The position numbers and the translations under genes are program-made. The notes below the pieces were generated by a model. The model did no database searches. It was not told where the DNA came from and saw only the letters and a program-made list of their open reading frames with translations. 64,000 nucleotides of DNA from Salinispira sp. GTDB lineage: Bacteria > Spirochaetota > Spirochaetia > DSM-27196 > Salinispiraceae. Positions 39,724 through 50,058 of the stretch are shown here, piece after piece; positions within the stretch are counted from its first letter, which is position 1, and each line of letters starts with the position of its first letter. The stretch lies in NCBI GenBank assembly GCA_965602015.1, contig OZ271918.1:1664001-1728000 (forward strand). Direction: 5' to 3'.

Positions 39724-40974
39724 GGGCACCTCTGGAAACTCGATGTTCAGCCGCCTGGATGCGCATAACACCTGGTTTTCCTTTTTACCCGCTTACTTTT
39801 TCACATCGGTAACTGCGGTCACCGATCCATTGCTATCTATTCCGGTGGTTTACCCCACTGGTTGCTTAACCAGGAAGCAGAATCTCTGAAGATTGTACAC
39901 AAGGTTTCCAAGGCCAATCTCAAAATCTGCTCGTTGTAATCCTTTTCTCCGAATTACCCGGAAATTAAGAACATGCTTCTTGTGAGCAAATACATGCTCA
40001 ACCCGGGAGCGTGTTTTAGACCACAAGGCATTTTCTTTGCTCTGCTCCGCAGTAATCGGGGTACCGCGTTTTCCTTTGTGCATTATGCGGGCACAATCTT
40101 TTCCTGCTGTCCGGATTACCGCGGTTAAACATTTCTGTCCCCAGTAGCCCTTGTCCGCGAATACTTCCTGACGAAAATCCTGTTCCCTGTTCAGCACCGG
40201 CGCAAAAGACTCCGAATCATGGACTGACGCATTTGTTGAATGGTAGTCCAGTATTAACTTGGAACCGTTATCTATTTTTGCAGTATTCTTATAGCCAAAA
40301 TAGGACTTACCGTGTTTCACGGTCCAACCGGCATCCATATCAATCTGACTTCGACGAGGGCTGGATTCACTTTCTTCAGTATCCTCACTTTCAGCTTCAA
40401 ATTTCTCTTTTTCACCCTTCTTAAGATGACGTTTCGGCGCTTCAATAACCTCCGCATCAACAATACGTCCATCATTCAGGATAAGTTCGTTGTCGTACAA
40501 AACAGCATCAAATCTCCCGAACAGCTTTTTCATTGCTCCTGTTTTTGTCAGCTTCTCTCGAAACTCCCAGATGGTTTTTTCATCAGGCACCTTGTCACCG
40601 CTGCGAAGGCCAATAAAATCTCTGAAGCTTGTTCTGTCTTCAACCTGAAATTCCAGTTCCCCGTCGCTGAGATTATATATGCGTCCCAGAATCAGCATCT
40701 TAAACTTCATCAGTTCATCGAAAGCCGGGCGTCCACCCGGTCCTTTGGGGATGCTTTTGAGGGCTCTGCGGATAATCGGCCTAAAAATTTCCCAATTAAT
40801 GTGTTCATTCAGCTGCAGTAGCTTGTTACGCTTTCTAAGGCGCTCAAGTCTGGCATTTTCTTCACTGTCTGAAAATGATAATTGGGATCCCATATAAATC
40901 CTCCGGATGCAATCTCCGGTTATTCTAGATTCTTACTCTTCCTTTGTAAATTCTTTGAGTTTCCAGAGGTGCCC
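39724..40974 (-). mobile_element. IS5 family element, copy 1 (1251 bp)
   Basis: IR GGGCACCTCTGGAAACTC; 4-bp TSD GGGT. Confidence 0.95.
39850..40893 (-). CDS. IS5 family transposase
   Basis: GGRP, VPDEKTIWEFRE, IVDA, FGYK, ADKGY, RSRVEHVF. Confidence 0.93.
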   Translation of the reverse strand: MGSQLSFSDSEENARLERLRKRNKLLQLNEHINWEIFRPIIRRALKSIPKGPGGRPAFDELMKFKMLILGRIYNLSDGELEFQVEDRTSFRDFIGLRSGDKVPDEKTIWEFREKLTKTGAMKKLFGRFDAVLYDNELILNDGRIVDAEVIEAPKRHLKKGEKEKFEAESEDTEESESSPRRSQIDMDAGWTVKHGKSYFGYKNTAKIDNGSKLILDYHSTNASVHDSESFAPVLNREQDFRQEVFADKGYWGQKCLTAVIRTAGKDCARIMHKGKRGTPITAEQSKENALWSKTRSRVEHVFAHKKHVLNFRVIRRKGLQRADFEIGLGNLVYNLQRFCFLVKQPVG

Positions 40975-41100
40975 GGGTATTTTTTGAATTATTATAACTA
41001 TATCACGAATTGAGGAATCGCAAAAGACAAAAGCTTTCTTTTTTTACTCGAACGCCTCGGAGATTTATCAAAACTTGTGCGCGCAATAAACGAACTGCAA

Positions 41101-41922
41101 TTACCAGGAGCCTTTACCTGCTTTGATTATTTCCCAGAGAAGAATCGATCCGGCACATGCCACATTCAGAGAGTTCACATTGCCGTCACCGGGAATCTTT
41201 ACCACAAAGTCACATAAATCCTTGATTGACCGGCTCATTCCCTTCGCTTCATTTCCCAACGCAAGCACTATCGGTAAGGGGTACTCCACATTCGAGGCAA
41301 TATTTTCCCCAGTTGAGTCAGATCCAATAAGCAATCCGGAAAATTTACTCCGAAAAAATGCGATCCATTGAACCAGCTCATCCAGCGACTGGATTTGATA
41401 GATCGGAGTATGAAAAACGCCGCCCAATGATGCTCTGATAACCTTGGAATCAAAGGGATCGACCCCATGTCCGAAAATAAGCACCCCGTCGACCCCAAAA
41501 CTATTTGCCGTACGAATGAGGGAGCCCAGATTGCCTTTATCACTCGGTCTGTCAACAAGTAAAAACACAGATTCGGGTCGAGTTATGTTTGTGGAGAATT
41601 CCCTGATGGGGTATAAAAAGGTTGCCAGCAGTTCAGAAGGCTCGCTGCGTTCACTCAGCTCATTGAATAGAAGTGCATCCATCTCAATGACATGCTCGAC
41701 AATCGAGGATTCAAGGATACCTTTTGCCCAATCACTCAAGGTTCTGTCTTTCTGATAAATCATCCGGGTGAACTGACAGCCTGCGGAAACAGCCTGCTTG
41801 AGGCTTTCTGTCCCTTCAATAAAGCCTTGTTTCAGCTTTGTTCTCTTGGATCGATTATTTTTTAACGATTCGATAATCTGAAATTCGGAATTTCTCGTAC
41901 TAATACGCAACAATCTGCTCAT
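41101..41922 (-). CDS. TrmH/SpoU RNA 2'-O-methyltransferase (AviRb/Tsr-like N-terminus)
   Basis: DRPSDKGNLGSLIR, GNEAKG, SLNVACA SPOUT motifs. Confidence 0.88.
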   Translation of the reverse strand: MSRLLRISTRNSEFQIIESLKNNRSKRTKLKQGFIEGTESLKQAVSAGCQFTRMIYQKDRTLSDWAKGILESSIVEHVIEMDALLFNELSERSEPSELLATFLYPIREFSTNITRPESVFLLVDRPSDKGNLGSLIRTANSFGVDGVLIFGHGVDPFDSKVIRASLGGVFHTPIYQIQSLDELVQWIAFFRSKFSGLLIGSDSTGENIASNVEYPLPIVLALGNEAKGMSRSIKDLCDFVVKIPGDGNVNSLNVACAGSILLWEIIKAGKGSW

Positions 41923-42161
41923 ATCTCCCCCTCTTATATCATATCATTTCTTTCAAAGTATCTAGGCTCTCCCAAAGATTATGATAAATAGCATGGTTTC
42001 CTTTATTGGGGCTAAATTGGAGTGTTACCATTCCATCACTCAGGAGTAGATGGAAGCTGCGGATTGTGCGACGCTCCCCCAAAAAACACAATTTTTATGA
42101 GCAAAATGATTATACTTATAGATGCAAATCCAAGTTCAGACGAGCTGAATCCGGAGGAAGT

Positions 42162-42869
42162 GTGGAAAATTTAACAGATGCAGTAATTATTGTCGCCGGT
42201 GGCACCGGGTATGTTGGCGAAGGTCTTGTTTCCAGTTTTCTGCGAGAGGGCGCTCGGGTTGTTGTGCCCTATCGCAATGAAAAAAAAGCCGATTCTCTTA
42301 AAGCCCGACTGGGACCTGAGCTTTTACAGAATTTGATTCTTTACCCTGCTGAGGTGAGCAATGAAAAAAGTATGGATAAGCTCGTGGATGACATAGTAAA
42401 GAAGTTTGGAGCAATTGATGGGGCAGTTGCTTCCCTCGGGGGATGGCATTACGGCTTCAGTCTTCATCGAATGCCCATGAAGGATTGGCAGCGTGTTGTT
42501 GAAGACAATCTGACTGCACATTTTGTTTTCATGAGCCCGGTAGTCGAACATTTTTATGCCCGGAACGCCGGTGAGTACATCATGATTAATGGCGGTGCCG
42601 CAGAGGTTCCAGCCCCTGAGGCAGGAGCCAACTCGGTTCTCGCCGCAGCCGAGAAAATGATGGCGCAAGTTCTTCGGGAAGAAGCCCATGGCACCAATGT
42701 GAATATCACCGCGGTAATCGCAACACAACCGATCAAAACCAGGGAACGCAAAATAGACAACATCGAAAATTGGCTCTCCGCAGAGGAAGTTGGGCAGTAT
42801 TGCTGTAGAGTAATGACCGGAACAGCAAATCCCAGGCAAGACGGCCTTCATTATCTGGGAACCCGCTGA
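42162..42869 (+). CDS. SDR family oxidoreductase
   Basis: AGGTGYVG Rossmann motif; GTG start after GGAGG. Confidence 0.8.
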   Translation: MENLTDAVIIVAGGTGYVGEGLVSSFLREGARVVVPYRNEKKADSLKARLGPELLQNLILYPAEVSNEKSMDKLVDDIVKKFGAIDGAVASLGGWHYGFSLHRMPMKDWQRVVEDNLTAHFVFMSPVVEHFYARNAGEYIMINGGAAEVPAPEAGANSVLAAAEKMMAQVLREEAHGTNVNITAVIATQPIKTRERKIDNIENWLSAEEVGQYCCRVMTGTANPRQDGLHYLGTR

Positions 42870-43080
42870 TAAACACTGTCGTAAGAATAATGTAGTCTGT
42901 CATCGTATTTTCAGGGCTGCAAATTACCGTGCCCTCGCAGCTTTCGGAATAGAAAATCGTGTACTGCGCAAATTTTTCTGAGTGATGGTATGAAAGCGGT
43001 GCCTCCCCCGAGATCCTGCCAGTCAGGGTCTATATTAAATACTGAACCGCCCCGGGAATCCCGGAGAGTGTTTTGTATGA

Positions 43081-43980
43081 CTACAGCCCGCTGGCTGCGT
43101 CTTGCAGTTGATCATAATATGCCTTCTCAAACTCTGCCGGAGGCATATATCCCAGGATTTCATAAATCCGTTTATTGTTGTACCAGCTTACCCATTCCAG
43201 CGTAGCAGCCTCAATAGCATCCAGGTTTTTCCACGGTCCTTTACGGTAGATCATTTCGGATTTGTACAGTCCGTTTATGGTTTCAGCCAGCGCGTTGTCA
43301 TATGAGCTGCCTACACTCCCAACAGATGGGGCAATGCCTTCTTCTGCTAAGCGGTCAGAATACCGGATTGACAGATACTGGCTCCCACGATCACTGTGGT
43401 GGATCAGCCCATTTTCAGGTTGCCTTGCCCACAGGGCTTGTTCCAGAGCATCCAGCGTCAGCTCTGCGCTCATGGACCTCGAGGCACGCCATCCGACGAT
43501 CATTCGTGAAAATACATCGATGATAAATGCCACATATACAAAACCCACCCAAGACGCGCAATAAGTGAAATCCGCCACCCACAGCTGATTCGGACGGTCG
43601 GCACTGAATTCCCTGTGCACCAAATCGAGCGGACGTTCATTTTTCGGGTCCGGTACTGTGGTTCGCACCTTGCGGCCTCGTATGACGCCTTTAAGCCCCA
43701 TGACAGCCATGAGACGGGCCACGGTACATCGTGCGATCTGGAATCCTTCTCGCTTCAGCTGGTGCCAGACCTTGCGAACGCCGTAAACCTCATAATTCTC
43801 ATCCCAAACCCTCTGGATCTCTGGCTTCAGGATTTCATCGCGCTTTACCCTTGCGGGAGCTGTTTCAGGGTGTTTTACTCGCTTTTTCTGTTCGTAGTAC
43901 ACCGAAGGAGCGATTGGCACCTGAGTACAAATCGGCTCGACCCCATAGTCATCGCGGTGTTCATCAATGAAGCAGACTAT
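43081..43980 (-). CDS. IS3 transposase OrfB
   Basis: YGVRKVW, WVADFTY, HSDRGSQY, DNALAE; -1 frame overlapping the orfA stop. Confidence 0.9.
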   Translation of the reverse strand: MVCFIDEHRDDYGVEPICTQVPIAPSVYYEQKKRVKHPETAPARVKRDEILKPEIQRVWDENYEVYGVRKVWHQLKREGFQIARCTVARLMAVMGLKGVIRGRKVRTTVPDPKNERPLDLVHREFSADRPNQLWVADFTYCASWVGFVYVAFIIDVFSRMIVGWRASRSMSAELTLDALEQALWARQPENGLIHHSDRGSQYLSIRYSDRLAEEGIAPSVGSVGSSYDNALAETINGLYKSEMIYRKGPWKNLDAIEAATLEWVSWYNNKRIYEILGYMPPAEFEKAYYDQLQDAASGL

Positions 43981-44303
43981 TTCTTGTGTTGGCGGTCGAG
44001 CTCCGCCTTCGCGAAATATGCGGAAGCCAGACGTAGAATCTCATTGGCTTTCTTGAGCTCCCGGTTCTCCCGCTCGAGCTCCTTGATTCGCTTCTTCTCG
44101 TCGGTTGTAAGTCCCTCCCGACTACCATTATCTTTCTCGGCTTGGCGAACCCACCGCCGTAACGTCTCTGCAGTACAGCCTATCTTTTCAGCTATCGACT
44201 CAATTGCGGCCCACTGAGAATCATATTCACCTTTGGCGGCGAATACCATGCGGATTGCCCGCTCCTTAACTTCCTCAGAAAACCTGCTGTTTTTCTTTAC
44301 CAT
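43977..44303 (-). CDS. IS3 transposase OrfA
   Basis: HTH plus LERENRELKKANEILR zipper. Confidence 0.9.
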   Translation of the reverse strand: MVKKNSRFSEEVKERAIRMVFAAKGEYDSQWAAIESIAEKIGCTAETLRRWVRQAEKDNGSREGLTTDEKKRIKELERENRELKKANEILRLASAYFAKAELDRQHKK

Positions 44304-44353
44304 GACTCCATCCTCTCACAAGATTTTGTCTCCGGTAAAGCCGGGGCGGTTCA

Positions 44354-45103
44354 CTTCAAAAAGCAGGCACACTGCCTACTGTGTGGATTCCACCAGGAGA
44401 ATTGCGTGATAAACGAGAACTCTATCGAACCCGGATGCAGTTCGTTCAGGAGTTGATACGTGAAAAGAACCAAATTCATGCCGGGTTCGAGAAATATGGG
44501 TTTCGATTCAATGATGTGAGCGATCTGTTCGGAAAAGCAGGTACAGAAGCCATGAAGAAGGTAATGCCAAAACTCCCCGAGCATACCCGCACCATGATGA
44601 AACTCAAGCTCGATAATCTCGCGTTTATTAAGCAATCTATCACCGACTGCGAACAACGAATGCATGAAGCGTTTGATGAAAATGCTGAAATGAAGTTGGT
44701 GAAATCCATTCCCGGGATCGGATTTATTCTCAGCGCAGTCATTGTGCATGAAATTGGAGACATACATCGCTTTAAGACCGCTGAACATTTTGCATCATAC
44801 TGTGGTACAACGCCGCGCGTTCACTCGAGCGGAGGTAAAACTCATTATGGTCGAACATCGAAAGCATGTAATCGATACTTGAAGTGGGCACTTACTGAAG
44901 CAGCTAATGTAACCTGTCTTAATCAAAGAAATTGGGCGAACCGACATACGGTAAAACTCTACAAGAGAGTTCGTACTAAACGTAATCATAAGGTTGCAAT
45001 AATCGCCGTGGCACGGCACTTAGCAGAAGCAATATTTTGGATATTGCAGAAAGAACAGCATTACAAAGATCCTGCATTAGCGGGTTTGTCCAGACAGGGG
45101 TAA
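44354..45103 (+). pseudogene. IS110 recombinase, N-terminal DEDD domain missing
   Basis: SIPGIG, FASYCG..P...SSGG, LKWALTEAA, AVARHLA. Confidence 0.88.
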
Positions 45104-45256
45104 GCGCGTTTTTGGGGCTACAGCGCGAATACGAGGCTGTGCAAAGTGATTGCGACACCCCTGGAAGGACATTTTCATGCCACGTGGATGGCGGAGATAT
45201 GACTCGGACAAAACCGATTTGCAGAATTTTTGTAATAGAACATTGAAAACTCTTGC
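45095..45256 (+). ncRNA. putative bridge/seek RNA of the IS1111-type element
   Basis: Stems CAGGGGT/ACCCCTG and ACAGC/GCTGT enclose segments matching the reconstructed target; further segments match the donor junction. Confidence 0.65.
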
Positions 45257-45479
45257 GGGGAGGCACCGCTTTCAGATATGCCCCTAAGCTTGTTGAATTT
45301 ATTAAGAGCTCGCAGGATACCGGGATTGAAACGGGAGTCCCGCACGAGATACGGAATAAAATTGCCTTGTTCAACAAGCTTCCGGGCAAGGTGTATTTAA
45401 CATAATTCTATGTCTCCCTTGACGCATATTTAATATTATCCTATTTATATATAAATTTTTAATTATATATGAGGAATAT

Positions 45480-45719
45480 ATGGCACGAATCATAATCGAC
45501 GTTCGAAGTGCAGCAGAATACAGTAACGGACATGTGGCCAGAAGCAGAAACCTTCCATTAGGACAACTCAGGAGTAAAATCTCAAAGTACGCACAGCGCT
45601 TAGATGAGATTTGGGTATGTTGCGCCAGCGGTAGCAGAAGTGGAACAGCCCGAAAGCAGCTATTAGAGATGGGGTATAAACGGGTCAAGGACATAGGACC
45701 CTGGACAAATCTAAAATAA
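45480..45719 (+). CDS. single-domain rhodanese-like protein
   Basis: IIDVRSAAEY..GH; CCASGSRS. Confidence 0.8.
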   Translation: MARIIIDVRSAAEYSNGHVARSRNLPLGQLRSKISKYAQRLDEIWVCCASGSRSGTARKQLLEMGYKRVKDIGPWTNLK

Positions 45720-45769
45720 TTACCATATGGATATATAGCGCCTTCAAGATGAGGAGCAAATCTAAGTCT

Positions 45770-46217
45770 GATACCAACACCCAGTACAACAATCTACCCA
45801 TTAAAGCGAATCTGCTGCGTGCATCGAATCGAGAAGGGATCGAAGATCGCTTCGAACCCGAAGCAGTTCGACAATCGATTCTCGCGGACAAGTATTTACT
45901 CGATCATTACGACCGAGCAATCCTTGATATTGAGTCGACAGTCATGCGCCAAGCAAAAGCGGATGATGCATACGCGCTCAACCTCCTGCGCTCAATTCCA
46001 GGCATTAGACCAGTACTCGCCCTTACTATTCTCTATGAAGTCGGTGATATAGAACACTTCCCCAAGGTCGGCAATTTCATCTCCTATTCTCGCCTGGTCA
46101 AAGGCGCTCATGAGTCAGCGGGAAAACGATCTAAGGGAGGACATAACAAGATCGGAAATGCACATCTGAAATGGGCATTCAGTGAAGCGGCAGTCTTACT
46201 CATCCGGGAGAGAGATG
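45770..46217 (+). pseudogene. internal fragment of a second IS110 recombinase
   Basis: SIPGI, FISYSRL, ESAGK, LKWAFSEAA; cut by an IS3 IR; left boundary approximate. Confidence 0.8.
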
Positions 46218-46239
46218 TGAACCGCCCCGGAAATCCCGG
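46218..46239. mobile_element. isolated IS3 terminal IR remnant
   Basis: TGAACCGCCCCGGAAATCCCGG, one mismatch to 43043-43064. Confidence 0.8.
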
Positions 46240-46442
46240 TGTAGACTGGCACATTAAATTGAGCAAACCGGCAAAGAAAATCTCAGAAACAGTTAAACAA
46301 TCTCTCAATCTGCTTAGGCAATAATTTACCCCTACCGAAATAAAAAAAAAGAGCAATGGGTCGAAAGTTTGGCGACTTCCCCATTGCTCTGACATCTCTC
46401 CCCAAGGGGAAAAACTAAACGTTATTTACTTGTCGGATAGAT

Positions 46443-46730
46443 TTGGAAAAAGTTCAAGAGGAAGGCAAGCAGTACTGCTGGAAAAAGCCAGGAAACTGTC
46501 CCGAATGCGGTAGCTGTAGACTGTGGGGGCATGGATTCGTCTTACGGAATTTCGTCGGGTTTTCTCTGGGTCTGTGGATGAAACGCTATCGATGCCCGGA
46601 CTGTTATGCTGTTCACACCTGCAGGCCAGATACTTTTCTACCGGGAATGCAATATCCTGTTCAAACTCAAATCTCCAGCCTGGAAGCAAAGCTTGCAGGA
46701 AAGCCGTTCCTTCAAACTGTGTCGAGGTAG
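46443..46730 (+). pseudogene. Zn-ribbon accessory ORF, likely prematurely stopped
   Basis: CPECG..WGHG..RYRCPDC; frame continues IQQHWW after TAG. Confidence 0.6.
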
Positions 46731-46936
46731 ATCCAGCAGCATTGGTGGAAGACATTTCTCAACCACTGCCGCCGTAGCGGCAACTGGACTGCCCCACATT
46801 CGGTTTTCCTCCGCAGGCAGAGCGATGATCAAATACCAGTAACAACCAGGCGAATATACCGTGAGATCTGGTCAGAAGCCTGTGTACCCTACCTGCCTTT
46901 TGCGCTGACAGTGAAACCGCGTCCATTTAGCCTTGA

Positions 46937-48253
46937 GTGAGAAAACGTATCACTCTCAAGGAGGAGAAAATGGACAGAGAAAAGAAAGAAAAGATCGCAG
47001 TATTCCGCTTCGGGGTCATCTTTCCGCTTGTGGAGAAAGACCTACACCAGTATTGGGGAGAGAAAGAGCGAATCCTGCGGGAGCTGGTCAGCAAGGAATG
47101 GGAGATTCCCTTTTCAAACCGAAACTACATCAGCAAGGCCACCATCCTGACCTGGGTAAAGCGCTACGAAGATGGCGGGCGGAAAATCGAAGCCTTGTTC
47201 CCCGAAAGCCGGGGAGACAAGGGGCGAATGAGAAGCATTACCGATGAGCAAATTGATGCGCTCATGCTGCTTCGAAAAGAGCATCCAAAACTCTCCACCC
47301 CGCGTCTGGTTGAAATTGCTCAAGGAAACGGCGTCTTTCCGTCCGGAAAAGAGGTCTCCATGGCCAGCATTTACCGGCTCATGAAGATCCGCAAAGCCCA
47401 ACGGGTCAAGGTCGAGTCTGACATGAGGAAGTTCGAGGTACAACTACCCAACGACCTGTGGCAGTCAGACTGCATGCACGGTCCGAAAGTTCTGCATGGC
47501 GGGAAACTGAGAAAGACCTATCTGTTTGCAATCATTGACGACCATTCAAGGCTCATTACCCATGGCCAGTTCTACCTGGCTGAAACACTGGAAAATTACC
47601 TGGACTGCTTATGGACGGCGTTACGCAAGCGGGGAGTTCCCCGAAAGCTCTATGTCGATAACGGGGCATCATTTAAGGCGCACAGGCTCCAGTTGGGATG
47701 TGCTTCGCTGGAAATCGGGCTGCGCTATGCACGGCCGTACCGACCCCAGGGAAAGGGCAAGATTGAACGGTTCTTTCGTACCGTACGTAGCCAGTTTATC
47801 CCCGAGCTTCCCGAAGAACTTCCCCTGGATGAGATCAACCGGCTGTTTCACCACTACATTGAAAACGGTTATCACCAGAGGATCCATGGCGGTACGGGGC
47901 AGAAGCCCCTGGAGCGTTACCTGCAGGATGCCCATGCCTTGCGAAAAGCGCCGGAGAACTTGCCTGAATACTTTCGAAAACGCGAGGAGCGAACGGTAAA
48001 CAACGACCGGACAGTGAAACTCGATGGCCGTTTGTATGAAGCTCCTGCAGGTTTGGTGGGCATGAAAGTCGTCCTGCGGTTTGAGAATTACGATCGGATT
48101 GAAGTCTTTCTCGAGAATCAGTCAAAGGGATTCTTAAGAGATCTGGATCAGGGAGTGAACAGCCGCATTAAGCGGGACGGCACGGGTCCGGTCATGCCGT
48201 CGGCTTCGGGGGGAGCTCTTTTTGAAAAGCTGGGCTCAAAGGCAGGTAGCTAA
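46937..48253 (+). CDS. DDE transposase/integrase with Mu-transposase-like C-terminus
   Basis: WQSD, IIDDHSR, YVDNG, PQGKGKIERFF. Confidence 0.9.
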   Translation: MRKRITLKEEKMDREKKEKIAVFRFGVIFPLVEKDLHQYWGEKERILRELVSKEWEIPFSNRNYISKATILTWVKRYEDGGRKIEALFPESRGDKGRMRSITDEQIDALMLLRKEHPKLSTPRLVEIAQGNGVFPSGKEVSMASIYRLMKIRKAQRVKVESDMRKFEVQLPNDLWQSDCMHGPKVLHGGKLRKTYLFAIIDDHSRLITHGQFYLAETLENYLDCLWTALRKRGVPRKLYVDNGASFKAHRLQLGCASLEIGLRYARPYRPQGKGKIERFFRTVRSQFIPELPEELPLDEINRLFHHYIENGYHQRIHGGTGQKPLERYLQDAHALRKAPENLPEYFRKREERTVNNDRTVKLDGRLYEAPAGLVGMKVVLRFENYDRIEVFLENQSKGFLRDLDQGVNSRIKRDGTGPVMPSASGGALFEKLGSKAGS

Positions 48254-49059
48254 TGGATACGCTGCGCCACCACTTTGGATTCCGGCACAACCCGTTCCCG
48301 CAGAATGTAGCGGTAAAGGACCTGTACCCCTTACCGGCATTGGAACCCCTGCAGAAGCGGGTGTTCTTTGCCCTGGAGCAGAAAGCCATTGCCGTCATCA
48401 CCGGAGATGTGGGGTCGGGAAAGTCTACGTCATTGCGCTATGTCTCAAGCAAATGCCATTCGAGTGAGTATGAACTGATTACCATTGTCGGCGGGAACTT
48501 CTCACCCATGGAACTGTACCGGCAGATCCTGCTCACTTTCGGCATGAGCTATATGTCGTTCCAGGTATCGATCATGATCTCGAAGATCCGGGAGCTTATT
48601 CTGGAAATTGCATCCCGCAATGTCATCCCGGTGCTGGTAATCGATGAGGCTCATCTGCTGAAACGGTCAGTGTTTACCCAGCTGCATACCCTTGCTCAGT
48701 TTGAATTCGATTCCAAACCGGTCATGCCGATGATTCTCTGCGGTCAGGATTTCCTGCTCGATCATCTGATGGCTAACTCAGTTCGGCCTCTGGCGTCCCG
48801 GGTGCTGGGCAAGAATCATCTGGAGTCTATTAAGAAGGAGGTGATGGAAGATTACCTGAATCATCACATCACCCTGGCCGGGGGAACAAAGAAAGCATTC
48901 AGTGATGAGGCGATCTTTGCCATTCATCAGGGATCCGGTGGTCTCTTGCGGAAAGCCAACTCCCTGGCGAAAACGGCTCTCCTTGCCTGCGCCGGAGATG
49001 GTGGACAGACTGTTTCTGCAGAACACGTCCGGGTCGCTTCCACCGAGATTTTTATGTAA
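48253..49059 (+). CDS. ExeA-family AAA ATPase
   Basis: GDVGSGKST, VIDEAH, ILCGQ; TAATG coupling to the transposase. Confidence 0.9.
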   Translation: MDTLRHHFGFRHNPFPQNVAVKDLYPLPALEPLQKRVFFALEQKAIAVITGDVGSGKSTSLRYVSSKCHSSEYELITIVGGNFSPMELYRQILLTFGMSYMSFQVSIMISKIRELILEIASRNVIPVLVIDEAHLLKRSVFTQLHTLAQFEFDSKPVMPMILCGQDFLLDHLMANSVRPLASRVLGKNHLESIKKEVMEDYLNHHITLAGGTKKAFSDEAIFAIHQGSGGLLRKANSLAKTALLACAGDGGQTVSAEHVRVASTEIFM

Positions 49060-49168
49060 ATGCTGCCCCTGCCGCGAATGCGGCAGGGGGTACCCTTCGT
49101 CAGTTTTACTTGTAAAATTGTTTGTCTGTACGTGCGAGGGTTAGGCTAATTTAATGTGCGAAGCTACA

Positions 49169-50058
49169 CACATTGCGGTAGTAGTGAACAACACACCGTT
49201 GCCAACGGGCTTTCGGAAAAAACTCCTTGATGGATTCTACAAGTCCAATGCATTTATCAGTGATAAATAGCTGACTATCCTTCAATCCACGAGCTTTCAG
49301 ATGGGTCAAGAAATTGCTCCAACCGGCTTTATCTTCCTTTTCACCTTCAACAATGCCCAATACGCTGCGATATCCGCTCTCTGAGACACCGATTGCCACC
49401 AGGATACTGACATTTCGCACTTCACCGGCCCAGGAGCGCTTGAGAATTGTACCGTCCAGGTAGACATAGGGATAGTCTTCGGTTAGCGGCTTATTGCGCC
49501 AGGCATCGATTTTCTCGTAGATCTCTTGATTGAGATTGCTGATTGTTGAGGGACTTACTTTGGTTCCCCAGAGCGCTTCGGTGATATCTTCTACCCGGCG
49601 GACGGAAACCCCGGCAAGATACATTTCTACCAACGCTTCCTCGACAGAAGTTTCCCGGCGCTTGTAGCGCTCGATTATTGCAGTTTCGAAGGGCAAGTTT
49701 CGAAGCTTGGGAACTTTGAGCTCGACTCGACCGGCGGTAGTATCGAGCTTTCGCTTGTAGTGCCCGGCTCGGGTGTCTTTGCGCGCATCTGTGCGCTCGT
49801 ACTTTTCTGCCTGGATCAGCCGATCGGCTTCTGCATCGAGCATGGCATTCAGAGTTTCTTCGACGGTTTCTTTGACCATCTGGGTTACCTGACTCTGTAC
49901 GAGACCCTCATCAATTTGTATGATCCTCCGAGTGGGATCGTTCTTCGGTTCCATTCTGTCCTCCTGGTTGAATGGTCTTGTGGTGATTCCATTTCAGCAT
50001 TGGAGGACATTTTTTTTCAATATCTTTTTTGAATGTGCGAAATTTTTTGGACGCTATC
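49169..50058 (-). mobile_element. truncated second IS256-family element (transposase 5' part from 49954)
   Basis: IR GATAGCGTCCAAAAAATTTCGCAC at 50058; GVSVRR, YLDG, WQRCVVH, then cut by the TGT..ACA element. Confidence 0.88.

Follow-up and report, generated by a model that had tools for sequence, protein, structure and literature searches.

An IS1111-type element of Salinispira, broken in one copy and intact in nine, with a likely guide RNA downstream of its recombinase gene

The window, a stretch of 64,000 nucleotides of Salinispira sp., carries a broken copy of an IS1111-type element of the IS110 family, with a guide RNA likely encoded in its 3' non-coding region. Nine intact copies of 1,305 bp each, all coding for an IS110-family recombinase of 350 aa, are present in the same genome. 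Our reading, which we hold with a probability of about 0.9, is that the two-arm guide RNA of the element would direct insertion at AG-TG-CCCC(S)AAAAC, and that the intact copies would use this RNA while the window copy is defective. A preliminary description of this DNA had proposed an IS1111-type element with bridge/seek-RNA guides in the 3' non-coding region and had advised searching for an intact copy. The element and its RNA are real; an IS1111-type element with a two-loop guide RNA in this region is well supported, covariation can now be added, and the search returned the nine copies. The boundaries had been misplaced: they were given as 42975..45290 around an AT core, but the element extends from the TG at 42983 to 45278, followed by the right TG, with the following parts:

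42979..42982 (+): left target flank TGAG, of which AG is common to all 10 left junctions in the genome
42983..42984 (+): left copy of the TG core and start of the element, from unoccupied targets (AG-TG-CCCC) and from the left ends of homologues
42985..42990 (+): left terminal extension ATGGTA, which would become the right half of the donor site once the element is circular
42991..43008 (+): left subterminal inverted repeat, 18 bp, perfect
43043..44353 (-): IS3-family element of 1,311 bp, with orfA/orfB and an ALIL frameshift pseudoknot
44354..45103 (+): remnant of the recombinase gene, codons 102-350, with a coiled coil and the Transposase_20 domain with its SG motif
45257..45278 (+): right subterminal inverted repeat (45257-45274) and extension GATA, up to the end of the element
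45279..45280 (+): right copy of the TG core, from unoccupied targets and the comparison of junctions
45279..45388 (no strand): MITE-like element of 110 bp with 19-bp inverted repeats TGCCC..AAGCTTGTTGAA, one end of which is the insertion target of the window copy

The intact copies are 99.1-99.9% identical over the part they share, with 24 internal differing positions. Their protein (P0001) matches PF01548 and PF02371, scores 226.8 bits against NF033542 (cut-off 140), and has identifiable D9, E54, D92 and D95 as well as S260-G261. Judged by these predicted domains, the intact copies have the features of the IS110 family, an N-terminal DEDD domain and a Transposase_20 domain with the SG motif, and the window copy keeps the C-terminal part only. 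The C-terminal motif, GTTPRVHSSG, has the looser form G--P----SG compared with GL-P----S(t)G in IS1111. Similarity to the solved relatives IS621 and ISCro4 is limited to the C-terminal part (residues 189-333, E 1.7e-11 for IS621). A scan of GTDB contigs with the single protein returned no homologue, whereas a scan with an alignment did. The closest homologous protein is 61% identical, so the geometry of the homologues is carried over a long branch to this element; plasmid matches are ~31% identical. We looked for a named IS among the relatives and found none.

Since the tree of homologues held no named IS, the placement in the IS1111 group rests on DNA features. With one TG counted, the terminal extensions are TGATGGT (7) and ATA (3), allowing one mismatched outer position of the repeat, in line with the rule of 7-bp left and 3-bp right extensions described for the IS1111 group (PMC11187229). 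The perfect repeats would be separated by 12 bases with one TG, and by 9 in the AT reading. At 18 bp, the subterminal repeats are slightly longer than the 7-17 bp given for the group in PMC11208160. The intact copies have ~175 non-coding bases downstream of the gene and ~77 upstream. By these features, the element belongs to the IS1111 group and its mechanism would be IS1111-like.

The IS3-family element in the window copy has 7 identical copies in the genome. It lacks a target duplication and occupies a site where 320 bp of the host element are missing, namely the ribosome site, the start and codons 1-101, including D9, E54, D92 and D95. The lost piece occurs in the genome only within the nine intact copies. 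The earlier remark that this copy lacks its DEDD domain was therefore correct, and an IS3 insertion accompanied by a 320-bp deletion would account for the loss of the catalytic domain. Without it, the window copy would move only with the recombinase of sibling copies; as it keeps both ends, both cores and the RNA, it may be mobilisable in trans only. It had also been suggested that its RNA could act in trans. This would add little, because 7 of the 9 intact copies have exactly the same 135-nt region and the other 2 a version with a single changed base, and the relation is more likely the reverse, with a sibling recombinase acting on the intact ends of this copy. Likewise, the proposed new programmable-recombinase ortholog is best sought in an intact copy. 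Among the contigs listed, one of low depth continues from this left flank into intact sequence, a link that the 62 shared bases do not settle.

The surroundings are rich in mobile elements. Elsewhere in the genome (G000:C1:2612958-2614408), another copy of the same IS3 cuts the end of a MITE, also without target duplication. Within the window, positions 39850-49954 form a dense cluster with a DDE_Tnp_1/DUF772 transposase, an integrase-core protein with an AAA ATPase and a DUF6431 protein, and a Mutator-family transposase. At 45749-46324 lies another IS110-family fragment, unrelated to the first (121 residues at 35% identity). Its end is marked by an IS3-type terminus near 46219, which is 79% like five other places in the genome.

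As deduced from its junctions, the target of the element is AG-TG-CCCC(S)AAAAC, which belongs to the terminal repeats of MITEs and of an IS1-like element. The sequence AG-TG-ATGGTA is present at each of the 10 left junctions and GATA-TG-CCCC at 9 of the 10 right ones, the tenth being the joint of a tandem duplication; this corresponds to one target used in one orientation, a trait of the IS1111 group. A 1,247-bp element (12 copies) and MITEs of 142-145 bp carry the main repeat as their terminal inverted repeat. "IS1-like" is a weak label, since the 376-aa protein of the 1,247-bp element matches the IS1 model with E 7.7e-8, below the cut-off; this transposase (L002:438-1565, G000:C1:153353-154599) has no Pfam match above the cut-off. 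AG precedes the TG at all 7 occupied main-repeat ends and at 68 of the 119 unoccupied ones (Fisher p=0.041). The window copy sits in a second, 110-bp MITE-like family. Its MITE has no close paralogue, and the family of its end has 27 matches genome-wide with up to 1 mismatch, 18 of them preceded by AG. Between two genomes of the same genus, the target repeat is unevenly distributed, with 89 matches in G001 and 2 in G002. IS4321/IS5075 are reportedly inserted in the terminal repeats of Tn21. Insertion in the repeats of other mobile elements also has a precedent in IS1111 within QMITE2 (Wachter et al. 2018, PMC5896051); the hosts here are instead the IS1-like element, its 143-bp MITEs and the second, 110-bp MITE family.

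The RNA and its guides are placed as follows:

45083..45216 (+): predicted guide RNA of ~135 nt, from fold and covariation, with predicted ends
45108..45118 (+): right target guide GTTTTTGGGGC, from pairing and covariation, complementary to the second core base and the repeat end (G-CCCC-S-AAAAC)
45143..45148 (+): left target guide AAAG and core TG, from covariation
45171..45178 (+): likely right donor guide in the register of the family, ATTTT, then CA opposite the core, then T
45179..45192 (+): donor-arm hairpin GCCA/TGGC, which in the family is a stem of the RNA and does not serve as a guide (99% of cells paired, one pair having 19 double changes)
45195..45201 (+): left donor guide AGATA and core TG, whose variable base is the right-end base

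The predicted fold is more stable than that of shuffled sequences (z -2.1 for 45085-45260, z -3.0 for 45080-45220) and contains both stems named in the preliminary description, CAGGGGT/ACCCCTG and ACAGC/GCTGT. Target arm and donor guides lie in a multiloop, which an outer stem (45086-45091 paired with 45206-45211) closes. Compensatory changes support the fold: across 56 aligned RNAs, 94.4% of cells are paired compared with 78.2% after shuffling, and 16 of 22 pairs show double changes. For the outer stem, which was named from the alignment, the values are 80.1% and 63.4%, and 31-50% in slid controls. A local 3' hairpin considered in place of the outer stem had no covariation support. Searching Rfam with the RNA region matched no family, and only the ALIL pseudoknot of the IS3 passed. 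Among 58 elements, a junction promoter of at least 9/12 was predicted in 53 with the TG junction and in 34 with a junction shorter by 3 bases. None passed in the scan of this element, where the -35 reads TTGCGG by eye. The end-to-end joint of a circle was absent from four contig sets of one sample, contigs being prone to drop rare forms.

All motifs quoted earlier for the guides stand at their coordinates: GGGGC (45114-45118), AGTGAT (45145-45150), TTTCATGCCA (45173-45182) and AGATATG (45195-45201). With TG as the core, and with the right donor guide most likely in another register, two of the four guide assignments have to be revised. TTTCATGCCA matches the donor at 9/10 positions, a level reached by 16 of 500 base shuffles of the RNA, and is unlikely to be the guide: its exact matching across 55 homologues is 4.96, compared with 4.92 after shuffling. 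As ATGA occurs twice at the junction, four of these donor matches fit either register. The core-anchored register reaches 3.85/6 in homologues against 2.83 after shuffling, and prevails in 9 of 24 close pairs against 4, with 11 ties. In this element it pairs weakly, with one mismatch and two wobbles.

Such degeneracy, in an element that spread to 10 places, together with the weak test on close pairs, leaves some room for the seekRNA model, in which the RNA guides the target only, recognition of the donor ends falls to the protein, through the subterminal repeats, and the donor matches would be vestigial or reflect ancestry. Indeed, a short RNA with target matches suffices for ISEc11 (PMC11187229). 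We nonetheless find this model unlikely, if the most serious of the alternatives: the left donor guide agrees with the right end in every one of 55 elements, which represent a few clades and not 55 events, the donor arm and the closing stem are conserved with compensatory changes, and donor guides in a multiloop have been described for many IS1111 RNAs (PMC11208160).

A more speculative idea is that the donor arm has drifted and reads a second DNA register by opening the GCCA/UGGC stem, in which case the RNA would encode an alternative donor specificity that captures flanking DNA. It builds on the poor pairing of the family register here, on the CC kept opposite GG in all 8 homologues with ATGG left ends, and on the RNA segment AUGCCA (45177-45182), the exact complement of TGGCAT, a type of reading found at 0.39% of TG sites. 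We think it quite improbable. TGGCAT is the chromosomal site joined to the right end in a tandem duplication (G000:C1:3399413-3402532, L003) of two identical 1,560-bp units, each with 255 bases of a host gene and the element, joined at the right-end TG. This duplication fits half-match recombination and LD-only tandem expansion, described in bioRxiv 10.64898/2026.08.31.748434 and 10.64898/2026.08.14.744561, which would explain it; that work concerns IS621 and genome mining, and the term IS1111 is absent from 10.64898/2026.08.14.744561.

Some further observations concern the donor arm of homologues. In 45 of 56 cases the first target base is identical to the RNA base that follows the donor TG, and in 11 it differs, mostly following clades; the two are equal in L046, L069, L134, L143, L147, L153 and L158 (G/G six times, T/T once), mostly within one clade. 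A "bottom-strand handshake" between these two bases was set aside as mostly clade-driven. In locus L174, a tandem repeat comprises the right end and ~46 bases of the RNA tail, with its joint at the TG within the left donor guide.

The target guides were compared with the flanks of homologous elements. Loci with short or masked flanks or unparsed guides were dropped (104 of 118 left) and the rest collapsed at 90% RNA similarity to 58 representatives, 57 without this element. Per position, the left flank agrees with the four bases that precede TGA[AT]TGCG at a rate of 0.88-0.95, compared with 0.32-0.46 after shuffling. Over the 57 representatives, the left guide matches the left flank at 4.37/6 positions (2.19 shuffled) and the right guide, which follows AGCGCG, complements the right flank at 4.77/7 (2.56 shuffled), values reached in 0 of 2000 shuffles each. 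Among 28 disjoint closest pairs of homologues, from which one badly translated row was excluded and where this element is unpaired, the guides fit their own flanks better than those of the partner in 25 and never the reverse, with 2 ties and 1 pair with identical guides. Hence, the covariation between guides and targets that had been suggested as a check is found for the target guides. In this genome, 8 of 10 right junctions can pair with GTTTTTGGGGC over 10 of its 11 bases, four of them with a wobble at the eleventh, and the target of the window copy at 7 of 11 positions plus 2 wobbles. The GGGGC noted earlier as a target guide resembling the bottom strand is thus the end of a longer guide. 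In AGTGAT, taken to be the target top strand, AGTG holds and AT matches the left end of the element itself. The segment 45108-45118 lies 5' of 45143-45148, i.e., the top-strand match comes first, as in the IS1111 group. In 10 of 104 loci scattered over the tree (window 45117-45120; L045, L048, L069, L075, L078, L144, L160), the right target guide ends in CT and not in the usual CAT, so only the second core base would pair.

If protein contacts or DNA structure at the repeat ends chose the target, the RNA matches would be incidental. Only AG-TG is strictly matched on the left in this genome, and one copy lies in the second repeat family with an imperfect match, as such a choice would allow. The joint change of guide and flank in 25 of the 28 closest pairs, never in reverse, makes it very improbable, and favors guidance of insertion by the RNA.

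The duplicated core is TG and not AT, as read from paralogous and homologous sites. Main-repeat ends have 126 matches with up to two substitutions, 7 of them occupied; an AT core would require GTGA in front of these ends, and it is found at none. Genome-wide, AGTGCCCCNAA occurs 73 times and AGTGATGCCCCNAA 0 times. AG precedes TG in 37 of 42 unoccupied paralogue rows, and GTGA in none; these rows count partly the same elements for two queries, and one is the duplication site. We examined 164 homologous loci, 150 with a parsed RNA and 127 with both ends, the right-end TG being part of the parsing anchor and the left-end TG not. Their left ends read TG-N6-TGA in 118 of 127, with AT after the TG in 77 and AA in 41. 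An orthologous empty allele was sought in five relatives and not found, as 1 of the 5 has the upstream gene (58% identity) and none has the right flank; the TG core therefore rests on paralogues and homologues. Given these data, the proposed target CTGAGTG-AT-GCCCCTAA and donor junction TTTCAGAT-AT-GGTATGAAA were not confirmed: unoccupied targets read AG-TG-CCCC and the predicted junction is CAGATA-TG-ATGGTATGAAAG. The AT geometry as a whole (target AGTG-AT-GCCCC, junction AGAT-AT-GGTATGAAA, right donor guide TTTCATGCCA) expects an empty allele AGTGATGCCCC, where the TG geometry expects the target AG-TG-CCCCGAAAAC; it can draw on the 9/10 match, with no homologue above 7/10 in that register, on a register score with wobbles slightly above shuffles (6.45 against 6.25, 0/2000, 53 rows) and on an RNA base after TGA that tracks the DNA base after TG-A (0.74 against 0.48), yet it is hardly credible, as it fits none of the 126 repeat ends or 42 rows, 41 of 118 homologous left ends lack AT, the tracked base belongs to the left end of the element with a signal that follows clades, the register is without exact-match covariation (its score is reached in 441 of 2000 shuffles, and 20 of 24 pairs are tied), and GCCA is a covarying RNA stem.

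With the TG core, a course of events can be proposed that goes beyond the anatomy, core, target consensus, covariation and fold observed here, and is modelled on IS621 and ISEc11. An intact copy would form a circle joined at CAGATA-TG-ATGGTA. In the complex of recombinase and RNA, the right target guide would pair with the top strand and the left one with the bottom strand, with the same arrangement on the donor, and strands would be exchanged at the TG.

The closest known systems are the seekRNA elements ISEc11, ISKpn4, ISPa11 and ISPst6 (Siddiquee et al. 2024, PMC11187229). They share the DEDD recombinase of ~350 aa, the subterminal repeats, the 7+3 end extensions, the downstream non-coding region, the top-strand match in first place and natural retargeting among relatives. 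They differ in their target and in their usual repeats of 11-13 bp, against 18 bp here; donor-matching segments are visible in the element described here, which is known from its sequence alone. IS621 and its bridge RNA (Durrant et al. 2024, PMC11208160; Hiraizumi et al. 2024, PMC11208158; 2026, PMC13626964) have in common with it the two-base core at both ends and four guides for target and donor, whereas here the RNA lies downstream of the gene, the guide order is reversed, the core is TG and not CT, and the donor guides are in a multiloop. No paper on this clade was found by title or abstract, and large datasets may still include it. A look for two RNA motifs and one peptide motif in 7 supplementary files of PMC11208160 found none of them, while the larger dataset of that study may still include them.

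The element brings a further recombinase that is apparently active and RNA-guided, with its target mapped and TG as its core; the mechanism has been known since 2024 and no new one is proposed. Its clade offers at least 57 natural combinations of guide and target on one scaffold of ~135 nt, and marks the positions that may be reprogrammed, four bases to the left and about six to the right of the core. Whether IS1111 RNAs bind the donor as well is a point on which the seekRNA and bridge-RNA papers differ, and to which the closing stem and the covarying left donor guide are relevant.
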